A stretch of DNA of 64,000 bases from a virus: positions 1-64,000 of IMG/VR virus record IMGVR_UViG_3300025012_000049; one strand, 5' to 3'. The notes below the pieces were generated by a model, which saw only the letters and a list, made by a program, of their open reading frames with translations, had not been told where the DNA came from and ran no database searches. Shown here piece after piece: positions 1 through 61,472 of this stretch (the first letter of the stretch is position 1; each line of letters begins with the position of its first letter). The translations under genes were made by a program, and so were the position numbers.

Positions 1-6
1 TAGCAG

Positions 7-1230
7 GTGATTACGTTAGCAAACACAACGAGATATACTTGGAGTGTTTTTGCGAAAAAAGGGACGACTAATTTCATCGCTGTAAATTCAGCGAATGGAG
101 GGAATTTATTCACTTATTTTGACTTAAACACTGGTGCAGTTGGGACAACGGCAAGCGGTGTAACAGCGACAATTGCTCCGTATGGAGATGGATGGTTCCG
201 GTGTTCATGCTCGGTGATAACGGTCGGGACTAACGGCTATTTTGCAGTTTATCTTGCCAATGCAAACGGATCACTTGCGGTCACTAGCGGTAAAACCGCT
301 TACCTCTGGGGCGCACAACTCGAAACCGGCTCCGTCGCCACCTCCTACATCCCCACCACCACAGCCGCCGTCACCCGAGCCGCACGCTACACGACCATCG
401 CCGGGGCCGAACTCGGTGAGGACATTCGCTTCGACGCGGTGACGAAGGAGTTGGGCCGGGAGCAGTGGTTCCTTGGCGACCCGACGAGTCTGGCGGGAGT
501 GTATAAGAACGCGGCGGATAAGGTGGTGTATAGGGGGGTGTCGCTTGGGGCGGAGTTGGTGACGAATGGCGGGCTTGATAGTGATACGGCGTGGCAGAAG
601 GGAACAGGGTGGGCAATAGGGTCGGGGGTTGCTACACACTCCGGCAGCACCAGCGGAGCATTTACCCAAAATATATCAGTGACCGCAGGGAAAACGTATA
701 AGATTTCTGTAACTGTTAGCGGTAGAACTTCGTCACAAGTGAATGTAGCACTCGATGATGACGCGACCATTCTCGTAATTACAGCTAATGGAACTCATAG
801 CGTATTAAAGACAGCAGTAACTACAGGATCAAGGCCGCTCCAGTTTAATGCTATTACAACTTTCGATGGATCAATAGACAACATCTCCGTCCAAGAAGTC
901 AAAGAATTCACCTCCACCACCTCCCTCACCGCCAACACCCCTATGGTCATCGGCGTGCATAACGGCACGGACGGAGCCACGCTATACATTGATGGCACGG
1001 CAGAAGCCACCGACGCCACAATGACGACTCCGGTCACTTGGGGCACCACGGTCAGGATTGGCGCGGATACGGCAGCGACGGCGGGGAATGTGCTGAACGG
1101 CAGCGTGAGCAATATTTTAAGTATTAAAAGAGGTCCGTCAAATTGGATAAAGAAAACTACCAAAAATAATATTATCAATTTGTATGATAAAAAACGTTCT
1201 ATTTATTCCATTGAAGATCTAGCTGCATAA
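7..1230 (+). CDS. Fibre/adhesin-like protein, probably the 3' part of a longer gene: CBM-like domain, then a LamG/concanavalin-like domain with an inserted CBM-like module
   Basis: Motifs YTWSVFAKKG, GDGWFRCS and WGAQLETGSVATSYIPTT are typical of phage fibre CBM-like domains. LYIDG...RIGAD...LNGSVSNI resembles LamG. GAELVTNGG...IDNISVQEV is a second CBM-like module. GC content is far above the flanks. In-frame TAG at 1-3. Confidence 0.7.
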   Translation: MITLANTTRYTWSVFAKKGTTNFIAVNSANGGNLFTYFDLNTGAVGTTASGVTATIAPYGDGWFRCSCSVITVGTNGYFAVYLANANGSLAVTSGKTAYLWGAQLETGSVATSYIPTTTAAVTRAARYTTIAGAELGEDIRFDAVTKELGREQWFLGDPTSLAGVYKNAADKVVYRGVSLGAELVTNGGLDSDTAWQKGTGWAIGSGVATHSGSTSGAFTQNISVTAGKTYKISVTVSGRTSSQVNVALDDDATILVITANGTHSVLKTAVTTGSRPLQFNAITTFDGSIDNISVQEVKEFTSTTSLTANTPMVIGVHNGTDGATLYIDGTAEATDATMTTPVTWGTTVRIGADTAATAGNVLNGSVSNILSIKRGPSNWIKKTTKNNIINLYDKKRSIYSIEDLAA

Positions 1231-1243
1231 AGGAATACACAAC

Positions 1244-1684
1244 ATGAAAAAATTAATATTTCTTTTATTCTTTTTACTTTTACCATTCATATCTTTTTCA
1301 GAAGAAATAAAAACTGTTGATATTGTTTTACAAATCAAAGCCCCATACAATCAGAATATTGATGAAGCCATGAGTTTATTGGCACAACAATCTATCCAAT
1401 TATTTAATTCAGGGGGCAACCCAAATGCTCAGAAATTTGAAGAGTATTTGGGTTATGTAAATACCCCAGTAACAGCAAACCATATCAGGGTCAGGGTTGG
1501 TCAAGAATATGCCCGTATTATTGAGTTAATTGGGGAAAATGAGATAGTTAAATTGGTAAGGGTAGAATGGCCGGATAAAACACCGGAAGGAGGATGGGAA
1601 CCAATTACCTTTATTGTGCAATGTTATGATCTGAATAATCAACCTTATCCTTGTATCGTGGAATTGGGTAGGATAAGTCACTAA
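1244..1684 (+). CDS. Secreted/signal-peptide hypothetical protein
   Basis: MKK plus hydrophobic stretch LIFLLFFLLLPFISFS; AAGGA RBS upstream. Confidence 0.7.
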   Translation: MKKLIFLLFFLLLPFISFSEEIKTVDIVLQIKAPYNQNIDEAMSLLAQQSIQLFNSGGNPNAQKFEEYLGYVNTPVTANHIRVRVGQEYARIIELIGENEIVKLVRVEWPDKTPEGGWEPITFIVQCYDLNNQPYPCIVELGRISH

Positions 1685-4954: not shown

Positions 4955-5791
4955 CTAACTTTCATTGGTATATTGGTGTTTATCAGGATCATTTAAAGCG
5001 TTAACTAATAACATTAAACGATCATCGTTATCATCGTCAATTATATTATGCCATAATTGTTTTTTACGTTGTTCTGGATCAAGTATCCATTTATCCAAAG
5101 GCCATTCTTTATTATCAAATGGATGACAATAGACTGGTTTCCATTTAGGATTGGTATGCTCAACCCCACCCCATTTTTTGTGCATATATTTTCTATTTAA
5201 ATCAAAACTTCTTCGGCTTCTTAACTGTAATAATGGATTACGTCTAACCGTGGCACTTTCATAATGGTAAAATAAATTACGATCACCACAGTTATTAATG
5301 TATTTTATTCCTGTTTTTTTGACTCTGATACGGTAATCATCATCCTCGACATAATTGAAGAAATTTTCATCAAATAAACCAACTTGTTCAAAACAAGTAT
5401 TACTGATTATAAAACAATTAAATTGATGGGAAGATTCTACAAAATCATAAGCTTCATGGTAGTTTGATTCTATTGTATTCCAAAATTTATTATTGAGAAA
5501 AGCCGTATCACTACCAACAATAACAACAGCACTGTAATTATTTTTTACAAACGCTTCCCTTAACAGAATATTCCAACCACCAGCCACAGCCCAATTGTTT
5601 ATCCTACGTTGATATACATTTAATTTATCAAGATATTTATTAATGGTTGGTTCCATTTCTGGATTAGTATACCCTTGCCACAATAAACCTTTATCTACTT
5701 CAGCAGGAATATGTTTATACCATGAATCAAGACATTTATCCAATAAATCTGGATTGGAATAAGCTAAAGTGGTTAATAGTATTTTTGACAT
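4955..5791 (-). CDS. Glycosyltransferase family 2
   Basis: AVAGGWN, VGSDT (DxD-like), VGLFDENF-x-YVEDDDY, HYESAT. Confidence 0.85.
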   Translation of the reverse strand: MSKILLTTLAYSNPDLLDKCLDSWYKHIPAEVDKGLLWQGYTNPEMEPTINKYLDKLNVYQRRINNWAVAGGWNILLREAFVKNNYSAVVIVGSDTAFLNNKFWNTIESNYHEAYDFVESSHQFNCFIISNTCFEQVGLFDENFFNYVEDDDYRIRVKKTGIKYINNCGDRNLFYHYESATVRRNPLLQLRSRRSFDLNRKYMHKKWGGVEHTNPKWKPVYCHPFDNKEWPLDKWILDPEQRKKQLWHNIIDDDNDDRLMLLVNALNDPDKHQYTNES

Positions 5792-5793
5792 AA

Positions 5794-6354
5794 CTAGATA
5801 ACCTTTGGAAAATGACCATAATATTGATTACTAAATTTTAAACAACCTTTTTGTATAATTAAACTACAATTATAATCGTTATTCTCAAAATGTTCTTGTG
5901 CATGAATAATATGTAATCCACAATAATAGTCTTTAGCAATATCTTCAATAATGTTTTTTACATATTGTAATCCAAAATCAATATGTTTGTGGTTTTGGTT
6001 AATATTAAATCCCCTTTGCCGATAAATTTGTTCATTTGGAAATAAGAGACAAAGATGACCCCCTTGTTTAATAACTCTTAACCATTCAATTAATACTTTT
6101 TTAGTGTCTTCAAAGTCTTCTATTAAATGTGACGAATAAAGATAATCTATACCTTCATCGGCAAACATATAAAGGTTACTGGCATCACATTCTATGTTTT
6201 GTGCATTATCTCCTTCAAAAGCATAGCGTTGACCTTGGGGCAAATCTACACCAATGGCTGATGGAACAATTTTATCACCACCATATCCAAGGTCTAGTCC
6301 ATTTCCTTTACAATATGGTAAAAACAATGAGCGGTGTTTTGCTGTTTCAGACAT
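5794..6354 (-). CDS. Class I SAM-dependent methyltransferase (Methyltransf_11-like)
   Basis: GLDLGYGG, YSSHLIED, EWLRVIKQGG. Confidence 0.85.
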   Translation of the reverse strand: MSETAKHRSLFLPYCKGNGLDLGYGGDKIVPSAIGVDLPQGQRYAFEGDNAQNIECDASNLYMFADEGIDYLYSSHLIEDFEDTKKVLIEWLRVIKQGGHLCLLFPNEQIYRQRGFNINQNHKHIDFGLQYVKNIIEDIAKDYYCGLHIIHAQEHFENNDYNCSLIIQKGCLKFSNQYYGHFPKVI

Positions 6355-6355
6355 T

Positions 6356-7885
6356 TTATCTCCTTATATTTTCAAATGTGTTTATAAGGTGTTCAACAGT
6401 TATATTTTCACAACAATAAATTTTATCTTTATTACATTCCGTGAATGTTCTTGGTGCTGGTAATTTATGATGACAACCAACACATTCTAATTCATCCAAC
6501 CAAACAACCGTGGTTTTATCCCAATCATGAATACGGTAATTAGGATTGATACAACCAAAGAAAGCAAATATAGGTGTTCCAATTGCTTGTGCAAAATGCA
6601 TCAAGCCTGAATCCCAAGATAGGAACATTTCAGATTGATAAATAACTTTAACTGTTTCATTGAAAGGTATTTTTCCAATCAGATTTAAACCAATCCCAAG
6701 ATAGTTTTCAGGATTAATACCAACCTCAACAATATAATATTTTTTCTCTTCTTTAAGATATTGTATAAATTTTTTCCATATTGTTAAAGGTATCATTCGA
6801 TTTTTCCAAGTATTATCTGAACAAACCACCAAGGTGTTTTCAGCTTTTTGCACTGTAGATTTATCAAACCCATAATAACGTGGAATCATTTCTTCAGGAT
6901 ATAACGCAATGTTAGCGGCTTTGCAATAAGCTTCAATAACGTGCATTTCCGGACGTTTTTCATAAGCCATATTCAAATCCACCATTAAATCATATTGCAT
7001 TTTATGTTTTAGATTTTTACCATATTCAGTAATATATGGGTTATTTAAAAAAGGTTGTGGACAAGCGGTATTTACAAAAATCTGACATTGGGGATATTTT
7101 TCTTTTAAACCTCTGATAATAGGTTCAACCATTAATACATCACCTATGGCTCCTTGTCTATCTATTAATATTTTCATAGGATCAAACTTTCTGGTTTTCA
7201 GATATTTTTTCCATCTGGTTCTAAGAAAATAATTATTTTCCTGTTCATATTTTTTAAAATCAATTTCTACTTTTTCATGTTTAAATGATTGGTGGTGAAA
7301 ATGTAAAATATCAATATCTTGACATTCTGCAATTTTATATCCTGCACTGCGTAACCTTAACGATAAGTCAGCATCTTCACAAAAGGCAAAGTACATATAT
7401 TTATCTTCAAACAAACCACCAACATTATTGACTGTTGCCCGATCTACAATGAAACAAGACCCCTCAATATAATCAATTGGATTACCTTTCCTCGGTTGCC
7501 CTTTGCCTTCTTCCCCAATATAACCAAAAGTTTGTTTGTTGCCTATTTGTGCTAATCCATGATTGTTTTCCAGTAATTGAACAAGTTGGTTATCCCAACC
7601 TTTTGTTTTAATAATCAAGTCATTATTTAAAACACAGAAGTATTTAGAGTTAGTAGAATTGAAAATATTATTATGGGCAGAAATAAAACCTAAATTTTCT
7701 TTATTTCTGACATATTTGATACGTTTATCTTTTAATTTGGACAAGTAATCTTGGGTATCTTTTCGAGAAGCATTATCGGAAATAATAAGCTGATAATCAG
7801 ACGTAGAATTTTCTAAAATGGATTGTATGCACTTTTTTGTTACATCAAGTTGGTTATAAACCAACAATGAAATAATCAATTGCAT
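6356..7885 (-). CDS. Fused GT2 + GT9 (heptosyltransferase-like) glycosyltransferase
   Basis: N-half: ISDNAS, NLGF, VLNND, FCEDADLSLR. C-half: GAIGDVLM, WDSGLMHFAQA, FFGC, C-terminal Cys cluster. Confidence 0.88.
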   Translation of the reverse strand: MQLIISLLVYNQLDVTKKCIQSILENSTSDYQLIISDNASRKDTQDYLSKLKDKRIKYVRNKENLGFISAHNNIFNSTNSKYFCVLNNDLIIKTKGWDNQLVQLLENNHGLAQIGNKQTFGYIGEEGKGQPRKGNPIDYIEGSCFIVDRATVNNVGGLFEDKYMYFAFCEDADLSLRLRSAGYKIAECQDIDILHFHHQSFKHEKVEIDFKKYEQENNYFLRTRWKKYLKTRKFDPMKILIDRQGAIGDVLMVEPIIRGLKEKYPQCQIFVNTACPQPFLNNPYITEYGKNLKHKMQYDLMVDLNMAYEKRPEMHVIEAYCKAANIALYPEEMIPRYYGFDKSTVQKAENTLVVCSDNTWKNRMIPLTIWKKFIQYLKEEKKYYIVEVGINPENYLGIGLNLIGKIPFNETVKVIYQSEMFLSWDSGLMHFAQAIGTPIFAFFGCINPNYRIHDWDKTTVVWLDELECVGCHHKLPAPRTFTECNKDKIYCCENITVEHLINTFENIRR

Positions 7886-17613: not shown

Positions 17614-19113
17614 GTGAAGACAATGGCTTATAGAATTAAAGGTAAAAATGGTTTGCCTATTAAAAAAGATGGGCATTTTCTTTTAGGGTCCGATATGCCA
17701 GTTGTTAAGATTGAACAATTGGATGAAGAAAACATGTCTTTCTTGGCAATTGGTTCCACGGAAGATGAAGATCGAGATAAAGATATTATCCGTATTGCTG
17801 GATGGCAATTGGGTAATTTCAAAAAGAATCCAGTACTCCCATGGAGTCATAATTATTGGGAACCGCCGGTTGGCAAGGCATTGATGGTTAAAAAAGATGT
17901 TGAAAAGAAACAATTGGTGTTTAAACCCCAATTTGACAAGGATGACGATAAAGCCCGTTTGATTTTCAATAAATATAAAAATGGATTTTTGAATACTTTT
18001 TCTGTTGGTTTTATTGGTGTTGAATGTTGTTTACGGGAAGAGGGAAATTATTGGGGTGGTCGGGAATTCACCAAACAGGAACTTTTGGAGATTTCCCCGG
18101 TAACGGTGCCTTGTAATCCCAATGCCAATATGGATGTAAGATCCTTGACGGATGATCTTCCGCCAAATCTTACTCAAATGGGCTATAAGCAATTTATGTG
18201 TAAAACTGAGTCTGGTTTATTTATTCCGGTAACGGATACGGAAATTTACACCAATCCATTTATTATTCCCTTGTGGAACGGTATCAAGGGAATTTATGGT
18301 TCCATGATTGATACCCCTGAAAGTGGCGATAAACAACTGGTTGGTTATGTTTTCCCTGAAGATATGGATGAACAAACTGCTAATGAATTTGTGAAAGCAC
18401 ACACAGACAACAAAGCAAAAGTTAAATATTTTGATATGGGTAAGAAACAAATTGGTGAGGAAGAGTTTGATTTGGAAGTCGTGGAGGAAGTGGAAGAAAA
18501 GGAAATTTCCGATGACTCTATTGAAACGGAAGAAATTTCAACTGAGGTTGAAGAAGAAAAGACAGAGGAGAATGTTGAAAATAAGGAAGAGTTGGAAGAA
18601 GAACAAAAAGAACCGTTTATTGAAGTAACAATATCTATTATTGATACAGAAGGTAAAGAGGTTAAATCCCGTAAGGAAAAAATTCAAAAGGAGGATATTA
18701 AGGAAGAAGATATTGATAAATTGTTTGAATCTGTTTTAGCTGAGGATACAGCCGATGATGGAGAAATGAAAATATCTGATAAACAAATGGATGAAATTGT
18801 AGAACGAGTAAAGAAATCTGTTGAAAAAGAAAACGAAGTAGATAATAATGACAATAGTAATTCTGAGATTGTGCTTGCTGAAGAATCAGAAGAGTCAAAA
18901 AATGGTGAAGTTTTAGAATTTGATGAATCACTGTTCTCCCCTGTCAGTGATGATGATAATTCGGAAGATTTCATCGAAATTGACGATAAAGATTTTTCAG
19001 AGGTTAAATCACAGATGAAAAAAGGCAGTATAGGTAGTATTGGTTTAAAAGAAGTTTTGGAACAATCGGTAAAATCGGTGTTAGATAATTTTTCTGGAAA
19101 ATTGGAAGACTAA
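17614..19113 (+). CDS. Prohead maturation protease (HK97 gp4-like) with acidic scaffold-like C-terminus
   Basis: STEDEDRDKD, KKNPVLPWSH, FSVGF, LLEISPVTVPCNPNA; long Glu/Asp-rich tail. Confidence 0.9.
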   Translation: MKTMAYRIKGKNGLPIKKDGHFLLGSDMPVVKIEQLDEENMSFLAIGSTEDEDRDKDIIRIAGWQLGNFKKNPVLPWSHNYWEPPVGKALMVKKDVEKKQLVFKPQFDKDDDKARLIFNKYKNGFLNTFSVGFIGVECCLREEGNYWGGREFTKQELLEISPVTVPCNPNANMDVRSLTDDLPPNLTQMGYKQFMCKTESGLFIPVTDTEIYTNPFIIPLWNGIKGIYGSMIDTPESGDKQLVGYVFPEDMDEQTANEFVKAHTDNKAKVKYFDMGKKQIGEEEFDLEVVEEVEEKEISDDSIETEEISTEVEEEKTEENVENKEELEEEQKEPFIEVTISIIDTEGKEVKSRKEKIQKEDIKEEDIDKLFESVLAEDTADDGEMKISDKQMDEIVERVKKSVEKENEVDNNDNSNSEIVLAEESEESKNGEVLEFDESLFSPVSDDDNSEDFIEIDDKDFSEVKSQMKKGSIGSIGLKEVLEQSVKSVLDNFSGKLED

Positions 19114-19140
19114 AAAATAAATACATGGAGGAAATGAAAA

Positions 19141-20379
19141 ATGAAATTGACTAAAGAAGACCTTATTAAGATGTTGGACGAGCAACTTAAATCTCATGTT
19201 GCCGGTGATGATTTTGGGAAAATGGTACAGGATGTTATTGGCAAACACATTGCTTCTCTGCAAAGTGATGTAGCACAGCCGTTTGGTACGACTTCTAAAG
19301 CTATGTTGGCTGGTCTGCCGTTTATTAAGATGGATGGTGATTTTATTTCCACCAAGCAGGGTTCCATTATTAATATGAAGAATAAACAGAATCCTTGGGT
19401 ACAGGTTTCCGAAGAACTTGGTGCATGGGCTAAAGATTTTGCTAGTTATTTGAAAACTGGCAGTGTTTCTAAACTGCTGTCGGAAGGTGTTGATAGTGCT
19501 GGTGGTTATCTGGTTCCTGCTGAATTCCGTGCCATTATGATTATGTGGGATGCTCTGCCGACTTTGGTTTGGCAGCGGGCTACCGTGTGGCCGATGAATG
19601 GTGAAAAACTTGGTTTCCCGAAACTGCAACAGGATGCCGATGTAGAGTCTGCCAGCTTTGATCCGTTTGCTGGTGTGTCGTTCAGTTGGACGGAAGAAGG
19701 TGGTGAAAAAGGTTCGACGCAGCCTAATTTCGGTCTGGTGGAAATGGTGGCTCACGAACTTTCTGGTTATACGGAAGTTACCAATACTCTGCTTGAGTCT
19801 TCGGCGGTCAATCTGGTGAATTTCTTGACCCGTATTTTCCGTGCCGCTTGGTACTGGATTACGGACAAAACATTTATTCAAGGTACTGGTGGGAAACAAC
19901 CGTTGGGGATTATCAACGATCCTTCGGTGTTCACGGTTAATCGTCAAACCGCTTCCAATGTTGAAGTTGATGACGTTCTGAATATGGAAGCCAAACTTCC
20001 GGCAGTGTTTGATGAAGGTTCGGTATGGTTTATTTCCAAAAAAGCCCGTGCCAATCTGCGTGGTCAGAAAGTTTCTGCCAATAGTAAAGAATTGGTTCTT
20101 CAGGAAACTTTTGGAAATATTTCCGATGGTTATAATATGACCATTCTTGGTCGTCCGGCTGTTCTGGCGGATGGTAAGATTCCGACTCTTGGTACTGATG
20201 GTGATGTTATCCTTGGTAACTGGTCGCATTATTACATTGGTTTCCCGCAGGAATTCGCAATGGATTCCAGTAAACATTTCCAATTCCGTAAAAACCGCAC
20301 TTCGCTCCGTTGTGCTGGTCGGGTTGATGGCGTGGCAGCTCAGGCACAGGCGTTCGTGATCTTGGGCGGTGTCTCTTAA
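19141..20379 (+). CDS. Major capsid protein (HK97 fold)
   Basis: GGYLVPAEF, WTEEG, GTGGKQPLGI, ILGRP, RVDG; follows the protease; highly biased codons. Confidence 0.93.
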   Translation: MKLTKEDLIKMLDEQLKSHVAGDDFGKMVQDVIGKHIASLQSDVAQPFGTTSKAMLAGLPFIKMDGDFISTKQGSIINMKNKQNPWVQVSEELGAWAKDFASYLKTGSVSKLLSEGVDSAGGYLVPAEFRAIMIMWDALPTLVWQRATVWPMNGEKLGFPKLQQDADVESASFDPFAGVSFSWTEEGGEKGSTQPNFGLVEMVAHELSGYTEVTNTLLESSAVNLVNFLTRIFRAAWYWITDKTFIQGTGGKQPLGIINDPSVFTVNRQTASNVEVDDVLNMEAKLPAVFDEGSVWFISKKARANLRGQKVSANSKELVLQETFGNISDGYNMTILGRPAVLADGKIPTLGTDGDVILGNWSHYYIGFPQEFAMDSSKHFQFRKNRTSLRCAGRVDGVAAQAQAFVILGGVS

Positions 20380-20402
20380 TAGAAAACAAATTTTTTCATA
20401 GT

Positions 20403-20432
20403 GTGGGGATTTGAAATACAATCCCCACTTTT
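20403..20432 (+). terminator. Intrinsic terminator after the capsid gene
   Basis: GTGGGGATT...AATCCCCAC-TTTT. Confidence 0.7.
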
Positions 20433-20463
20433 CAAAAAATAAACTGATGGAGGATATAGAAAA

Positions 20464-20907
20464 ATGTACGATATTATTTCCAATAATAAGGTTGAAATTA
20501 TTCGTTCGGTGGCTGATGAAGCTGCTGGTGCAGCCGCCAATTCCCCGACTACTGAAATTGATCTTTATACTGGTGGTCTTGCTAATCGTGCTTTGTTGAT
20601 TATTGATGTTACTAGCGTTGGTACGGGTGGAACTTTGGATCTGGTTGTTCAGGATTCCGATGATGATTCCACCTATGATGCGGACTTTATCACCATTCCG
20701 CAAATTACTGAAACTGGTCTTTATCTGGTGGTTATTGATGATCCTAAACGGTATCTGCGGGTGAATCATGATGTTGATACCGATACGGTGAATTGGGGTG
20801 CTTATCTGGTGACGTTTGAAGAGCAACGTTGTCCGGTAACGCAAACTGGTACGGTTCTGACGGGTACTTATGGTTCCGGCCGTAGCCCGAAAGTTGCCAC
20901 GGCTTAA
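20464..20907 (+). CDS. Capsid decoration/cement protein
   Basis: Position after the capsid gene; VQDSDD...KRYLRV motif; high-expression codons. Confidence 0.7.
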   Translation: MYDIISNNKVEIIRSVADEAAGAAANSPTTEIDLYTGGLANRALLIIDVTSVGTGGTLDLVVQDSDDDSTYDADFITIPQITETGLYLVVIDDPKRYLRVNHDVDTDTVNWGAYLVTFEEQRCPVTQTGTVLTGTYGSGRSPKVATA

Positions 20908-20935
20908 CGCATTAACAGTTGTAATGCAGTATGCA

Positions 20936-20966
20936 GGGGTGTGGGATTTTCCTGCACCCCTTTTTT
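20936..20966 (+). terminator. Intrinsic terminator
   Basis: GGGGTGTGGG...CCTGCACCCC-TTTTTT. Confidence 0.75.
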
Positions 20967-21000
20967 AAAATTAATTTATCAGAGAGATAGAGAGGCAAAA

Positions 21001-24126: not shown

Positions 24127-24184
24127 GCATATAGGTCAGTTAGCCTATTTCTTTATACACCTCTCAGTGGAAAGGAAAATTATC

Positions 24185-25225
24185 GTGAAGATTAGAAAAA
24201 AGAACTTAATCGGTGATAGGTTTGGGAGGTTATTGGTTGTTGGGCATTATGAAGGAAAGTATTGGTCTTGTGTTTGTGATTGTGGAACAGAAAAAAAGGT
24301 AAGGGAAGATAGTTTAGAAAATGGGACAACTAGAAGTTGTGGTTGTTTAATGCGTGAATTAGCAAAAGAAAGAGAAACAGACAACTATAAAGATAAAACA
24401 GGAAAAAGATTTGGAAGATTAACTGTTGTAAAATGGGTTGGTTCTGGTAATTGGTTATGTAAGTGTGATTGTGGAAATGAGAAGATAGTTCTTACAAGTA
24501 GTTTAATGTCTGGAGGAACAAAAAGTTGTGGTTGTTTGTGTGATGAGGCCAGAAGAAAATCAAAGGATAGAAAACCAAAAGAGAATTTAATTGGAAAAAA
24601 ATTTGGAAGGTTGCTTGTTAAAAAATATAATAAAAAGGGTAGTTGGGTTTGTTTATGTGATTGTGGCAATAAACATATTGTAAAAACATTTAATCTTAAA
24701 TCAGGAAACACAAAAAGTTGTGGTTGTTTATATGTGGATAGTAGAGGACAGGTAAAAAACATAAAACATGGCTTAACCAAAACTCCATTTTACAATTTTT
24801 GGAGGAGACTAAAAGCAAGATGCAACAACCCAAAAAACAAGAGTTATAAAGATTATGGTGGAAGAGGAATTACATACGATACACGATGGGAAGAATTTGA
24901 AAACTTCTATAAAGATATGTATTTTAAATATTTGTATGCAATCAAACAATTAAAGATAAAAAAACCTAGTATTGAAAGAAAAGACTTTAATGGCAACTAT
25001 TGTAGAGAAAACTGTTGTTTTATAGAGCATAGCGATCAAAGTAAAAATACAAGGCATGTTATTGTTTTTGAGGCTATTTCCCCAGAAGGAATAAAAACAG
25101 AAGAATTGAATGTAAATGAATTTGCCAAAAAATATGGATTAAATACAGGACACATTTGTAATTGTATAGGAGGTTTAGAGAAAACCCATAAAGGTTGGAA
25201 ATTTAAAAAAATCAACAATGTATAA
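24185..25225 (+). mobile_element. Free-standing HNH homing endonuclease with three N-terminal CDCG zinc-binding repeats
   Basis: Three copies of G.RFGRL.V...W.C.CDCG...SCGC; DYGGRGI; IERKD.NGNYC.ENC; C-terminal DNA-binding HTH; inserted between tail tube and chaperone; GGAAAGGA RBS favours GTG 24185. Confidence 0.85.
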
Positions 25226-47504: not shown

Positions 47505-48398
47505 TCAGGAAATGCTGAAGTATTTTTCAAATTCCCAAAGATTATCAAGAAATTGTCTGAATCCATTTTTCTGACAGAATTTAATAAAACCATCTGGTTC
47601 CATATCACTTTGCTTAAATTTAAACTTATAATTTTTTAAAGAGGGATGGGGTAAAGAAACTGCTGTTAAATATCTTTCTATTATTTTCCAATTTTCTTCA
47701 ATTTTCTCCTTTTGCTTTTGTGAAATTGAATCATTTAAATATTTAATTGCCGTCTTTTCACCAATGCCTTCTATTGGTTTCAAATTGTCAGAGGTGCAGC
47801 CTCCAATTGCTTTCACCATATTCCAATCAGTAGGTTCCAACTGATGTTCTTTTCTAAACCATTTGTCAGTTCTTTTTTGTTTTTTATCAACATCATAAAG
47901 TGACACATTTTCTTTTAGGCACTGAAACAGGTCTTCATCCTTTGACACAATATAAATTTCTTCATCGTTTTCAAAATAACAATATAGAGCAATCAAATCA
48001 TCAGCTTCATACCCCTCTAAAAAGTTACCATAAAATCCCACTTCATTGCAGTAATTAACTAGATTATGGTATTCCTCCTTGAACTGTTTATTTAGTTCAA
48101 TTTCATAATCTGTGAGTTTTTTATTTTGTTTTTTACTTTTATATTCTGGAAATTGTTCTCTTCTTACTGACTTTTCACCAATGTCCCAAGTAATAACACA
48201 CTTATTTGTTTCTAGTTTTTTAGCACATGAAAGTAATGTGTTAAAAAATGTATAATACATTGTTGTGTTTACTGAATTATATGATAAATCAATGTTACTG
48301 GTGTATTTTGACCTGTATGCCAAGAATTTTCCGTCTACTAAAAGAGTTTTTGTTTTTTCTTTTCTTTTGGGTATTTTTTTAAGATTTAGTTTTTTCAT
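47505..48398 (-). CDS. 5'-3' exonuclease / T4 RNase H-like flap endonuclease
   Basis: LLVDG, YEADD, SKDEDL, SDNLKPIEGIGEKTA. Confidence 0.9.
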   Translation of the reverse strand: MKKLNLKKIPKRKEKTKTLLVDGKFLAYRSKYTSNIDLSYNSVNTTMYYTFFNTLLSCAKKLETNKCVITWDIGEKSVRREQFPEYKSKKQNKKLTDYEIELNKQFKEEYHNLVNYCNEVGFYGNFLEGYEADDLIALYCYFENDEEIYIVSKDEDLFQCLKENVSLYDVDKKQKRTDKWFRKEHQLEPTDWNMVKAIGGCTSDNLKPIEGIGEKTAIKYLNDSISQKQKEKIEENWKIIERYLTAVSLPHPSLKNYKFKFKQSDMEPDGFIKFCQKNGFRQFLDNLWEFEKYFSIS

Positions 48399-54144: not shown

Positions 54145-55179
54145 TTAAAGTAATGGGCATTCACAACACATACCCATATTTTTTACCACTTCCTTTTTTT
54201 CTTTTTCTTTGTCTACCAAATCACTTTTTGTTTTGTTTAATTCACTGTTTAAATGTTTAAGTGCTACTGAGGTTTGTTGGACTTCATTATAGGCTGTTAC
54301 TTGTTCATTTAAGGCAGGAAGCAATTTTAGAATTTGCTTTGTTTCAGATAGATAAGATTCAAGAATTGTTGCTGGAATGTTCTCAGTGTCTTTCAACTTA
54401 TCCAATATGTCAACAAGATTTTGCTGCTGCTGAATATTTTCTTCAAAAGTCTTTATAAATTGCAGGGTTTCCTTTATATATGACAGGTATTGTTCAATAT
54501 CACATTTGCTTTTTTGTGTGTCCAATTTTTTTACTTTGGAAACTATTTCTTGTATGTCTGATATTTGTTCTTGTAATTCTTCTAATTGATTTTGTTTTCC
54601 TTTAGTATTTCTAGCTTGTAGTAATAAACTAACAACTGGTCTAAGTTCTTTTATTTTCCTTTTGTTATCATAGTTGTTTTCTTGCAAGCGTTTTAATTCA
54701 GATTTACTGTCTGATAATCTGGCTTTTATTTCTTTTATAATCTCTTCCTGTTCTTCCAGACCTGTTGATACTCCCAACTGTTTTGCGGCATTTCCAGAGG
54801 TATTTAAAATCAGAAAATGACCATCTAATTGTTTATGCCAGTTGATGGTTTTTAAAGGAAACAGTTTACGGATAGGTTGAGGAACGTCTTTATTGAAAGC
54901 TTTGAATAATTCTCCATTTAAATAATATTTTTTCTTTTTACGTTTAATAATGTTACCTTGGAAATCTTCAACAATTATTTCCATAGGTTGTTTGGAATTA
55001 TGTTTATGAAATATTTTATCTGCTCCCCTTGGTAAGTTTTCAAGAATTAAATAAAGTGCTCTAACAATAGCTGATTTACCTTGATCGGTTTCACCAATGA
55101 TAGCATTAATACCTTTGGTGAAATTTAATTGTTTTTCTTTGTGTTTCTGAAAGTTTTTAACAATCAGTTTTTTTAACAT
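54145..55179 (-). CDS. SbcC/Rad50/gp46-like N-terminal ATPase half ending at the Zn hook
   Basis: KNFQKH, GETDQGKSA, Q-loop, coiled coil, terminal CCECP. Confidence 0.85.
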   Translation of the reverse strand: MLKKLIVKNFQKHKEKQLNFTKGINAIIGETDQGKSAIVRALYLILENLPRGADKIFHKHNSKQPMEIIVEDFQGNIIKRKKKKYYLNGELFKAFNKDVPQPIRKLFPLKTINWHKQLDGHFLILNTSGNAAKQLGVSTGLEEQEEIIKEIKARLSDSKSELKRLQENNYDNKRKIKELRPVVSLLLQARNTKGKQNQLEELQEQISDIQEIVSKVKKLDTQKSKCDIEQYLSYIKETLQFIKTFEENIQQQQNLVDILDKLKDTENIPATILESYLSETKQILKLLPALNEQVTAYNEVQQTSVALKHLNSELNKTKSDLVDKEKEKKEVVKNMGMCCECPLL

Positions 55180-60317: not shown

Positions 60318-61472
60318 TTAGTCATCCCACCTGTTTTTTCTTTCTGGTTTAATGGCTTGTTCTATTTCATTCCAATCTTTCTCTACAGCATCAACCAATG
60401 CCTCATATTCATCTTTATCATTTTCAATCAGCTCAATATATTCTTCTCGTTTATAATTTTCATCATTCCATTTAATAATTTTTACTTCTGGACCAAACAA
60501 ATAATCAACCATTGAACCAATATTATCCAAACCATAATCAAATAAGATACAGAATTCAGCATCACGATATGGTTTGGCACATTTATTACGTTTAAATGTA
60601 GCTTCAACCCTAACACCGTAAACTCTTTCCTGTGACCTAAATGTTTTGCTTAATTTCTTTTTGGTTCTTAACCAAGGAACTTGGTGAGTATAAAAGTCCA
60701 AAGCTTTTCCACCAGTTCTTTTATATTTATCACCAAACTTAACACCAATGTTTTCCCTGATTTGTGAAATAGCAAATATGGTTGCATCTTTACCTTGCTG
60801 CAATTCACAAAGGTGATTGAAGAAACCGCCTGAAAAATATTTAGCTTTTTCTGTACCATAAGCATCTTCTTCATCTTTGTCTTTTTTTAACGATTGTACA
60901 TTACGTTCTTTTTGGGCGGAAGAAATTGTAGCGTCAATTGAATCCCACGCATATAATAAACATTCTCCATCTTTAAGGTTTTGAATTCTCCTTTGAATGT
61001 TTCTTCCTCCTGCTTCACAAGTTGGTGAAGAAATCCATTCAACTGCATCAACAAAATCCTTACCATACATTTCTTCAATTGGAAAATCCATCACTCCTTC
61101 TGCATTGTCATAAACCATAAGCAGTTTTTTAACTTTTGGAAATGCATACGAAGGAATATCACCAAACTTTTTAAGAGTGTAAAAGGCATTAGCAAAGGCT
61201 TCCAATGTTAATAGTGTTTTCCCTGAACTACCATCACCAACTGGATTGATAATTCTACCCCTTGCCCAACCACCTCTACGACCTTTTTGAGATGCAGCAA
61301 GGTTAAGAATAACTGAACCTGTATTCAAATAATCAATACGCTTGTTTTCTTCTTTTGGTTCTTCTGTAAGAGTTTTCCTTAGAGATTTCTTTTTTACTGT
61401 TCTAACTTCAGCAGTAGCTAAAGTAGTTTTAGCTTTATCAGATTTTAAATTAAGGCGTCCCATTGTTTTCAT
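60318..61472 (-). CDS. recA: RecA/UvsX-like recombinase
   Basis: TGSVILN, GRI...GDGSSGKT, DNAEG, WDSI, ISQIRENIG, TGGKALDFY. Confidence 0.9.
   Translation of the reverse strand: MKTMGRLNLKSDKAKTTLATAEVRTVKKKSLRKTLTEEPKEENKRIDYLNTGSVILNLAASQKGRRGGWARGRIINPVGDGSSGKTLLTLEAFANAFYTLKKFGDIPSYAFPKVKKLLMVYDNAEGVMDFPIEEMYGKDFVDAVEWISSPTCEAGGRNIQRRIQNLKDGECLLYAWDSIDATISSAQKERNVQSLKKDKDEEDAYGTEKAKYFSGGFFNHLCELQQGKDATIFAISQIRENIGVKFGDKYKRTGGKALDFYTHQVPWLRTKKKLSKTFRSQERVYGVRVEATFKRNKCAKPYRDAEFCILFDYGLDNIGSMVDYLFGPEVKIIKWNDENYKREEYIELIENDKDEYEALVDAVEKDWNEIEQAIKPERKNRWDD

Follow-up and report, generated by a model that had tools for sequence, protein, structure and literature searches.

Why should a single gene of an AT-rich phage carry long runs of synonymous codons ending in C or A next to runs of codons ending in G or T? 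The question is raised by the beginning of the IMG/VR virus record IMGVR_UViG_3300025012_000049 (96,303 bp, 98% complete, about 30% GC), of which the first 64 kb, referred to here as the window, were analysed. The gene concerned ends with a stop codon at window position 1230, and its product matched PHROG 5939, a 'tail protein' family (E 1.8e-29). The original prediction, made from the sequence by eye, had proposed that mirror-image codon blocks bracket swappable modules of this gene. As described below, the blocks proved to be non-random, they are kept in relatives that carry different inserts or none between them, and the same skew recurs across a family of phage modules; we tentatively read them as linkers for homologous recombination.

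Silent-site blocks in the tail-protein-like gene

When third codon positions were recounted along the gene, the hand counts of the original prediction were reproduced in every block. The 34 codons of 301-402 ended 26 times in C, six times in A, twice in G and never in T, and counting from 298 gave 26 C, 6 A, 2 G and 1 T in 35 codons. The second C/A-ending block was similar, with 17 C and 4 A in the 21 codons of 877-939, or 17 C, 4 A, 1 G and 1 T in the 23 codons of 877-945. In contrast, 27 G, 10 T, 2 C and 1 A were found in the 40 codons of 481-600, and a weaker G bias was detected at 1060-1107 (9 G, 4 C, 2 T and 1 A in 16 codons). The two kinds of block use different codons for the same amino acids: Tyr is encoded by TAC in the C/A blocks vs. 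TAT in the G/T blocks, Glu by GAA vs. GAG, Gln by CAA vs. CAG, Gly by GGC vs. GGG, Ser by TCC vs. AGT or TCG, Leu by CTC vs. TTG, CTT or CTG, and Arg by CGA or CGC vs. AGG. The predicted use of GAA and CAA for Glu and Gln in the C blocks, and of TAT and GAT for Tyr and Asp in the G block, was also confirmed.

Amino-acid content was controlled by shuffling synonymous codons between positions of the same amino acid within 298-1107 (20,000 shuffles). The amino (C or A) or keto (G or T) class of the third position was concordant with the block in 106 of 124 codons, compared to 62.4 ± 5.3 in the shuffles (z 8.3), the C-minus-G concordance gave a z of 9.4, and the number of amino/keto switches, which is counted without reference to blocks, a z of -4.5. 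In none of the three tests was the observed value reached by any of the 20,000 shuffles. The original prediction had named amino-acid content as a possible trivial cause of the skew; with that content controlled, the skew was far beyond chance (z 8-9), confirming that the skewed codon blocks are real and non-random.

The blocks stand out in their own genome, where 10.8% of third positions are C and 13.6% are G. With 58-67% GC they form the sole such region of this 30% GC genome, and the two most C/A-rich 30-codon windows of its 96 kb, as well as its sole G-rich keto window, all fell in this gene. The second-richest region in GC (0.42-0.43; window 19000-21000) covers the major head protein gene and was devoid of comparable amino/keto blocks.

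Along the open reading frame (ORF), a native AT-rich N-terminus is followed by a GC-rich C run (-290 to -195) and a G/T run (-190 to -95), both located upstream of the window across the junction of the record, and then by module 1, where third positions are unbiased. The C/A block at 298-402 comes next, followed by a G/T run that was found to be wider than predicted (about 430-627), a short C run inside module 2 (637-655) and the near-unbiased remainder of this module to 876. The series ends with the C/A block at 877-945, mixed GC-rich sequence to 1107 and an AT-rich tail (Table 1). A cluster of G tracts on the coding strand (601-630, GGG-N4-GGG-N1-GGG-N5-GGG-N2-GGGGG), located where the G/T run gives way to the module interior, fits a G-quadruplex motif and may be a mere by-product of G richness.

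The full length of the gene was deduced from the ends of the record, the last 137 bases of which repeat the first 137 with two mismatches (window 1-137 vs. record 96167-96303). The copies differ at position 3, where G or C produces TAG or TAC, and at position 128, where A or G produces Asn or Ser. Since the end copy has TAC in place of the TAG found at window 1-3, the ORF runs on upstream to an ATG at record 95573, crossing the terminal overlap and encoding 607 aa. The assembly probably broke inside the gene because variants of it coexist in the sample.

Regarding the protein, its modules had been described as CBM-like. Their interiors are unbiased at third positions, as stated, whereas the CBM label derives from Pfam hits to CBM_4_9 and CBM31 that stayed below the gathering score (15.4 and 15.9 bits vs. 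cut-offs of 25.9 and 25). An AlphaFold model of a 407-aa part was all-beta but of low confidence (mean pLDDT 50.5), so no structural claim is made. As the main structural block (terminase to tape measure, 13-35 kb) does not include the gene, the protein is only a putative virion fibre. Its N-terminus is hydrophobic and signal-peptide-like, as are those of its relatives P0002 and P0003. Virion fibres do not usually start in this way, and secretion or membrane anchoring of the protein is therefore a possibility. A 146-aa gene located downstream (window 1244-1684) also starts with a signal-peptide-like hydrophobic segment.

Table 1. Parts of the tail-protein-like gene and recombination genes of the phage (window positions; aa, amino acid; nt, nucleotide)
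Feature	Position	Strand	Remarks
3' two-thirds of 607-aa tail-protein-like gene	1..1230	+	PHROG 5939; overlap copy
Module 1 interior, third positions unbiased	7..297	+	Divergent in P0002-P0005
C/A-ending block 1, conserved end of module 1 (WGAQLETGSVATSYIPTTTAAVTRAAR...)	298..402	+	83% nt identity to MW202748; C run family-wide
G/T-ending block, scaffold part (KELGREQWFLGDPTSLAGVYKNAADKVVYRGVSL)	430..546	+	70-84% aa identity in P0002, P0003, P0005
G/T-ending start of inserted CBM-like module (GAELVTNGGLDSDTAWQKGTGW...)	547..627	+	G-tract cluster at 601-630
Module 2 (inserted) interior, third positions near unbiased	628..876	+	Weak CBM_4_9 / CBM31 resemblance
C/A-ending block 2: module's own end (IDNISVQE, 877-889) and resumed scaffold (VKEFTSTTSLTANTP...)	877..945	+	
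Remaining conserved GC-rich scaffold domain, mixed C and G third positions	946..1107	+	78-84% aa identity to P0003/P0005
AT-rich C-terminal tail, genome-like composition	1108..1230	+	Common only to sister phage
Second exonuclease	47505-48398	-	PHROG 107, E 4.6e-28
Phage exonuclease, candidate end-resection enzyme	54145..55179	-	PHROG 16465, E 1.7e-20
UvsX-like (RecA-family) recombinase	60318..61472	-	PHROG 97, E 4.8e-35

Conserved blocks and exchanged modules

The search for close relatives among IMG/VR proteins returned two loci only, both distant, and a metagenome scan returned one. The sister protein P0002, found by protein search, is 51% identical overall, with N- and C-termini alike, and for the proteins P0003, P0004 and P0005 the match is confined to aa 99-178 and 296-372 (70-84% identity). 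Both segments belong to a single scaffold in the alignment, conserved in P0002-P0005, and what lies between its parts differs: P0003 and P0005 have six residues and no insert, whereas the protein of the window, P0002 and P0004 carry three unrelated inserts of about 100-130 residues. The sequence at 547-627 is absent from P0003 and P0005 and is replaced by unrelated sequence in P0002 and in P0004.

The contig that encodes P0002 (JGI contig L126, 34% GC) has the downstream gene in common with the window and, codon by codon, the same succession of C/A, G/T and C/A runs. Nucleotide identity between both was 0.76-0.81 in the blocks, 0.34 over 547-889 and 0.85-0.94 in the backbone, stopping at about 546 and restarting at about 890. 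Each block contains 16-20 synonymous differences, mostly within the same class (TTG/CTT, CGG/AGG, CTG/TTG), so something maintains the composition while the sequence drifts. The alignment is unbroken across the GC-rich scaffold and the AT-rich tail and continues into the genes that follow, and an assembly chimera was ruled out by this independent contig and by P0002. The comparison of homologues that the original prediction had suggested thus gave blocks that are kept, interiors that differ and identity that breaks at block edges, in agreement with its claim that exchangeable modules lie between the skewed blocks.

The motif WGAQLExGxxxTSYIPT...TR, encoded by block 1, closes a jelly-roll-like module that is widespread in phages; the DNA at window 300-383 matches a tail fibre gene from a phage of 55% GC (MW202748) with 83% identity. 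Viral contigs were scanned with a pattern degenerate at all third positions, giving at least 123 motif matches in at least 120 stretches, and the values for junctions of this set, including the shared islands described below, hold among the matches listed. At four-fold sites, C reached about 0.5 and G 0.05-0.1 in codons -10 to +25 from the W of WGAQLE, whereas in codons +30 to +50 G reached 0.5-0.67 and C 0.1-0.2, the level in the flanks being about 0.15-0.2 for each. Two-fold codons shifted alike in all four GC classes; in the 45-53% GC class, NNR codons ended in A in 90% of cases on the left and 24% on the right, and NNY codons ended in C in 64% and 29%, respectively. In phages below 36% GC the equivalent switch was detected as A>T followed by T>A.

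Overall, the C/A to G/T switch at the domain boundary was present in 114 of 119 junctions. Mean third-position identity was only 0.37 over all pairs, so common descent cannot carry the signal, and when representatives with third-position identity below 60% were taken, 65 out of 67 showed the switch (p 3e-17). First-position synonymous choices (Leu CTN/TTR, Arg CGN/AGR, Ser TCN/AGY) also followed base composition: in both classes with more than 45% GC, CTN made up 84-97% of the Leu codons on the left vs. 39-52% on the right, and in AT-rich phages 58% of Arg codons on the left were CGN vs. a baseline of 13%.

A second motif, at module starts (EPxxTNLxxxSExF), showed G at 0.43-0.56 vs. C at about 0.1, and the C-terminal motif of WGAQLE-family proteins was C-rich again; for the keto half of the C-terminal island, past the stop codon, no clear signal was obtained from only 10 usable cases. 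No start-to-end codon gradient was detected in 351 other ORFs from the same loci. The mirror polarity that had been proposed, keto before a module and amino after it, therefore holds both in the window and family-wide. An independent set of bacterial genome contigs from many phyla gave 57 motif matches, with a weaker effect. The WGAQLE..TSYIPT motif was common in contigs of metagenome-assembled genomes of predatory Bdellovibrio, Pseudobdellovibrionaceae and Micavibrio, and occurred also in bins of Saccharibacteria and Parcubacteria (loci L129, L133, L134, L139, L144-L146, L152, L156, L167, L172, L179 and L183).

The junctions were also compared all against all, with positions in nt relative to the W codon. 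In 59 pairs, to which 45 junctions contribute, an island from -2 to +145 nt is all that is shared (medians of 148 nt and 89% identity). A further nine pairs have the left module and the island in common, with identity that stops at +131 to +147 nt, and three pairs have the island and the right module in common, with identity that begins at -8 to -1 nt. Hence, the C/A run and the G/T run together are the unit of shared homology between otherwise unrelated genes. The original prediction had set the position of breakpoints as a test, and this result favours exchange bounded by the blocks.

Proposed recombination polarity and other possible sources of the asymmetry

The genome encodes a UvsX-like recombinase and two exonucleases (Table 1). 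Profile searches of this 98%-complete genome found no match to reverse transcriptase (PF00078) or to serine or tyrosine recombinases (PF00239 and PF00589), in agreement with the proposal that neither a reverse transcriptase nor an invertase is involved. No part of the gene recurs elsewhere in the genome, as DNA or protein, and the gene is free of inverted repeats of at least 14 nt. Diversity-generating retroelements (DGRs), shufflons and silent donor cassettes were rejected, as no reverse transcriptase, resolvase, integrase, second copy or repeats were found.

In our judgement the chances are about even that the skewed blocks are conserved in-frame linkers for homologous recombination in a mosaic tail-protein gene, with an asymmetry tied to the polarity of the recombination intermediates. 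Modules would be exchanged between phages by ordinary homologous recombination, for which the linkers would supply the shared homology and either the phage UvsX-like recombinase plus exonucleases or the host RecA would supply the enzymes, without need for a reverse transcriptase or an invertase. The segments in question are GC-enriched and show strand asymmetry in all their synonymous choices, the conserved end of one module being C/A-rich and the conserved start of the next being G/T-rich, so that a cassette reads, on either strand, 5'-G/T-rich arm, module, C/A-rich arm-3'. With this geometry, a break in the module followed by 5'-to-3' resection would give two 3' tails, both with the G/T-rich strand of the adjoining linker.

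The stability of RecA filaments is highest on TGG repeats and lowest on CCA repeats (PMC3763553), and selection experiments, as they are reported in PMC3763553 and references in it, yielded G/T-rich 'universal pairing sequences' for RecA and Rad51. The putative G/T-rich 3' tails would therefore have the composition that RecA-family recombinases hold most stably. In the gene, the G block alone has TGG-type hexamers on its top strand, and the bottom strand carries them in both C blocks; one further bottom-strand hexamer of this type, GTGGTG at 1049, lies in the mixed GC-rich scaffold.

As for the cause, we lean towards second-order selection, by which linkers that invade well would hitch-hike with the successful new module combinations that they help to form. 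Alternatively, strand-biased repair of the same intermediates could leave a footprint. In a bolder version, which we regard as possible but doubtful, the blocks would constitute a recombination address encoded in the sequence: silent sites of opposite amino/keto class would have evolved at the conserved starts and ends of modules so that both 3' tails left by a break inside a module are G/T-rich, unstructured and preferred by RecA/UvsX, acting in a Chi-like, host-independent way to steer module exchange between unrelated phages without a dedicated enzyme.

Several points weigh against linkers shaped by recombination. Module exchange is deduced here from sequence comparison, and the position of the break within modules is assumed. 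The evidence on recombinase preference comes from RecA of E. coli and not from UvsX or this host, and the half of the homology that lies 5' on the invading strand would be C/A-rich, the least favourable composition for RecA. Second-order selection would have to be powerful enough to fix almost all synonymous sites. Neither selection nor biased repair alone accounts for the fact that the linkers are enriched in GC, a feature that resembles GC-biased gene conversion. In addition, the signal in the bacterial contigs is weaker (37 junctions vs. 18), and a distant relative with a CBM module (L004/L005) is without clear arms.

The alternative that fares best, although we consider it unlikely, is a mutational footprint, in which damage to C and A on resected 3' tails (top strand on the left, bottom strand on the right) would leave keto and amino scars. 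This corresponds to the first of two mechanisms offered by the original prediction, deamination of resected 3' strands, and its polarity agrees in the window and family-wide. A precedent is provided by human meiotic hotspots, where C>N and A>N changes, A>G and C>G among them, occur on the resected flanks with a strand asymmetry that is mirrored between the two sides (PMC7615360). The base spectrum, however, is wrong. Deamination predicts a gain of T on one side and of A on the other, whereas the bases gained were G (from about 0.15-0.2 to 0.5-0.67) and C (to about 0.5), and T and A dropped or stayed level, most clearly in the class above 53% GC. In the window itself, the four-fold sites of the G block are almost all G. 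Moreover, as heterologous exchanges should be rare compared to replication cycles, mutation on the tails would not be expected to outweigh background pressure in genomes that range from 26 to 68% GC. One-step deamination from an AT-rich ancestor was rejected outright: four-fold sites are almost all G or C, and there is no purine/pyrimidine split.

A different kind of explanation, to which we give a smaller chance still, is selection on decoding, whereby C/A-ending codons would be read fast (Watson-Crick) and G/T-ending codons slowly (wobble), with a programmed slow-down after the domain that aids co-translational folding. It accounts for the fact that the axis of the skew is amino vs. keto and not GC vs. 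AT, in all GC classes and in both NNY and NNR codons, as the near-universal G34/U34 decoding rule would predict, and the switch sits at a domain boundary. The timing is nevertheless unfavourable, because the G/T run begins 3-25 codons past the domain end, a distance at which, given the length of the ribosome tunnel, the last strands of the domain would still be inside it. In 15 junctions whose downstream sequence belongs to none of the conserved families the G run is lost (C 37 vs. G 41 at +28 to +55) and the C run of the motif persists. The first-position choices described above are not predicted by decoding speed, phages above 53% GC use GAA and CAA in the left block even though G-ending codons dominate their genes, and the effect seems far larger than that of reported rare-codon clusters, which also counts against decoding.

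Recent import, with blocks that come from a GC-richer phage and retain the codon habits of the donor while nothing acts locally, we consider very unlikely. The unique GC richness of the blocks in this genome, the identity of block 1 to the gene of the 55% GC phage and the nature of the linkers as shared islands would all be expected from it. Yet no ordinary codon usage has GGG, AGG, TAT and GAT followed by GGC, CGC, TAC and GAA for the same amino acids. The skew is kept in 65 of the 67 lineages whose third positions are nearly randomised, it is found in phages below 36% GC as an A/T switch, and the silent differences between the window and L126 leave the class unchanged in both.

Finally, the second mechanism of the original prediction, arms that pair and loop the module out, is largely refuted together with other RNA or DNA structures that would mark the module (a rut site, an R-loop or a G-quadruplex), and its probability is slight: although any G/T-rich arm pairs with any C/A-rich arm (-58 to -104 kcal/mol) and the G-tract cluster is present, the RNA folds of 290-640 and 420-960 did not exceed dinucleotide shuffles in stability (minimum free energy z of -0.08 and +1.11), arm duplexes had a z of -0.58 to +0.26 vs. 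codon-order shuffles, RNAalifold on 38 diverse junctions gave an energy of 0 with no consensus structure and no covariation, no Rfam family matched, inverted repeats are lacking, and neither a rut site, an R-loop nor a G-quadruplex predicts the A-vs.-T skew of AT-rich phages.

Elsewhere in the record, the structural block contains a gene for an HNH endonuclease (window 24167-25225; PHROG 374, E 1.4e-85), with the head genes on one side and the tape-measure gene on the other. Glycosyltransferase-like genes (PHROG 3692/2456) and a gene for a radical SAM protein (PHROG 9298, E 1e-54) are found at window 4955-7885 and record 92630-93616, and their products may modify DNA or a surface structure.

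Known systems and meaning for phage biology

The host range of tailed phages is largely set by swaps of receptor-binding modules. Module exchange at conserved motifs, namely the 'His boxes' and glycine-rich motifs of T-even gp37/gp38, is said to have been described by Tetart in 1998 and Trojet in 2011, and horizontal transfer of fibre segments among P2, Mu and lambda reportedly by Haggard-Ljungquist in 1992 and Sandmeier in 1994. Localized recombination in R-type syringacin fibre genes is reportedly the subject of a further study (PMC6331570). Like these mosaic tail-fibre genes, the gene analysed here has variable modules between short conserved in-frame segments, relatives have the segments in common and differ between them, and no dedicated site-specific enzyme takes part. 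The difference is that the linker here is an island of about 148 nt made of a C/A half and a G/T half. The original prediction had known of no named system for its proposal; the exchange as such is of a known type, namely homologous recombination of modules at conserved linkers, and what is new is the strand-asymmetric silent-site composition of the linkers, of which no report was found in the literature searched.

With Chi and with the 'universal pairing sequences' of RecA and Rad51 (Tracy and Kowalczykowski 1996, 1997, as cited in PMC3763553), the linkers have in common that they are G/T-rich and orientation-dependent and would act on the 3'-ended strand after a break, and the TGG-type words of the G block and of both C blocks are oriented as predicted. 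Unlike Chi, they contain no single octamer, the bias extending over 20-60 codons through synonymous choices only. A Chi-like GNTGGTGG is present on the bottom strand at 353-360 and at 914-921, once in each C/A block, because of Pro/Ser-Thr-Thr codons; the best terminase matches, at about 25% identity, do not point to a host. In the orientation observed, GNTGGTGG would be met by a RecBCD-type enzyme arriving from the preceding module.

Meiotic double-strand break hotspots (PMC7615360) are similar in that opposite skews flank the break and depend on which strand is single-stranded after resection. Their signal is eukaryotic, extends over kilobases and consists of de novo mutations, whereas the phage linkers show a fixed coding composition, with GC enrichment, around exchangeable modules. 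DGRs and fibre shufflons of the Gin/Rin type also diversify phage receptor-binding proteins, but through a reverse transcriptase and template repeat, or an invertase and crossover repeats, which are absent here.

A strong and reproducible signature thus marks the exchange linkers irrespective of genome GC, with silent sites rich in C/A where modules end and in G/T where they start. If selected, it would represent a new class of cis-acting recombination signal written in synonymous codons, by means of which exchange points in fibre genes could be predicted and engineered. If it is instead a footprint of repair, nature would have recorded in it the polarity of the intermediates in phage recombination, as well as biased repair in phages and bacteria. 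Either way, it provides a simple means to find module boundaries in the genomes of uncultured phages.

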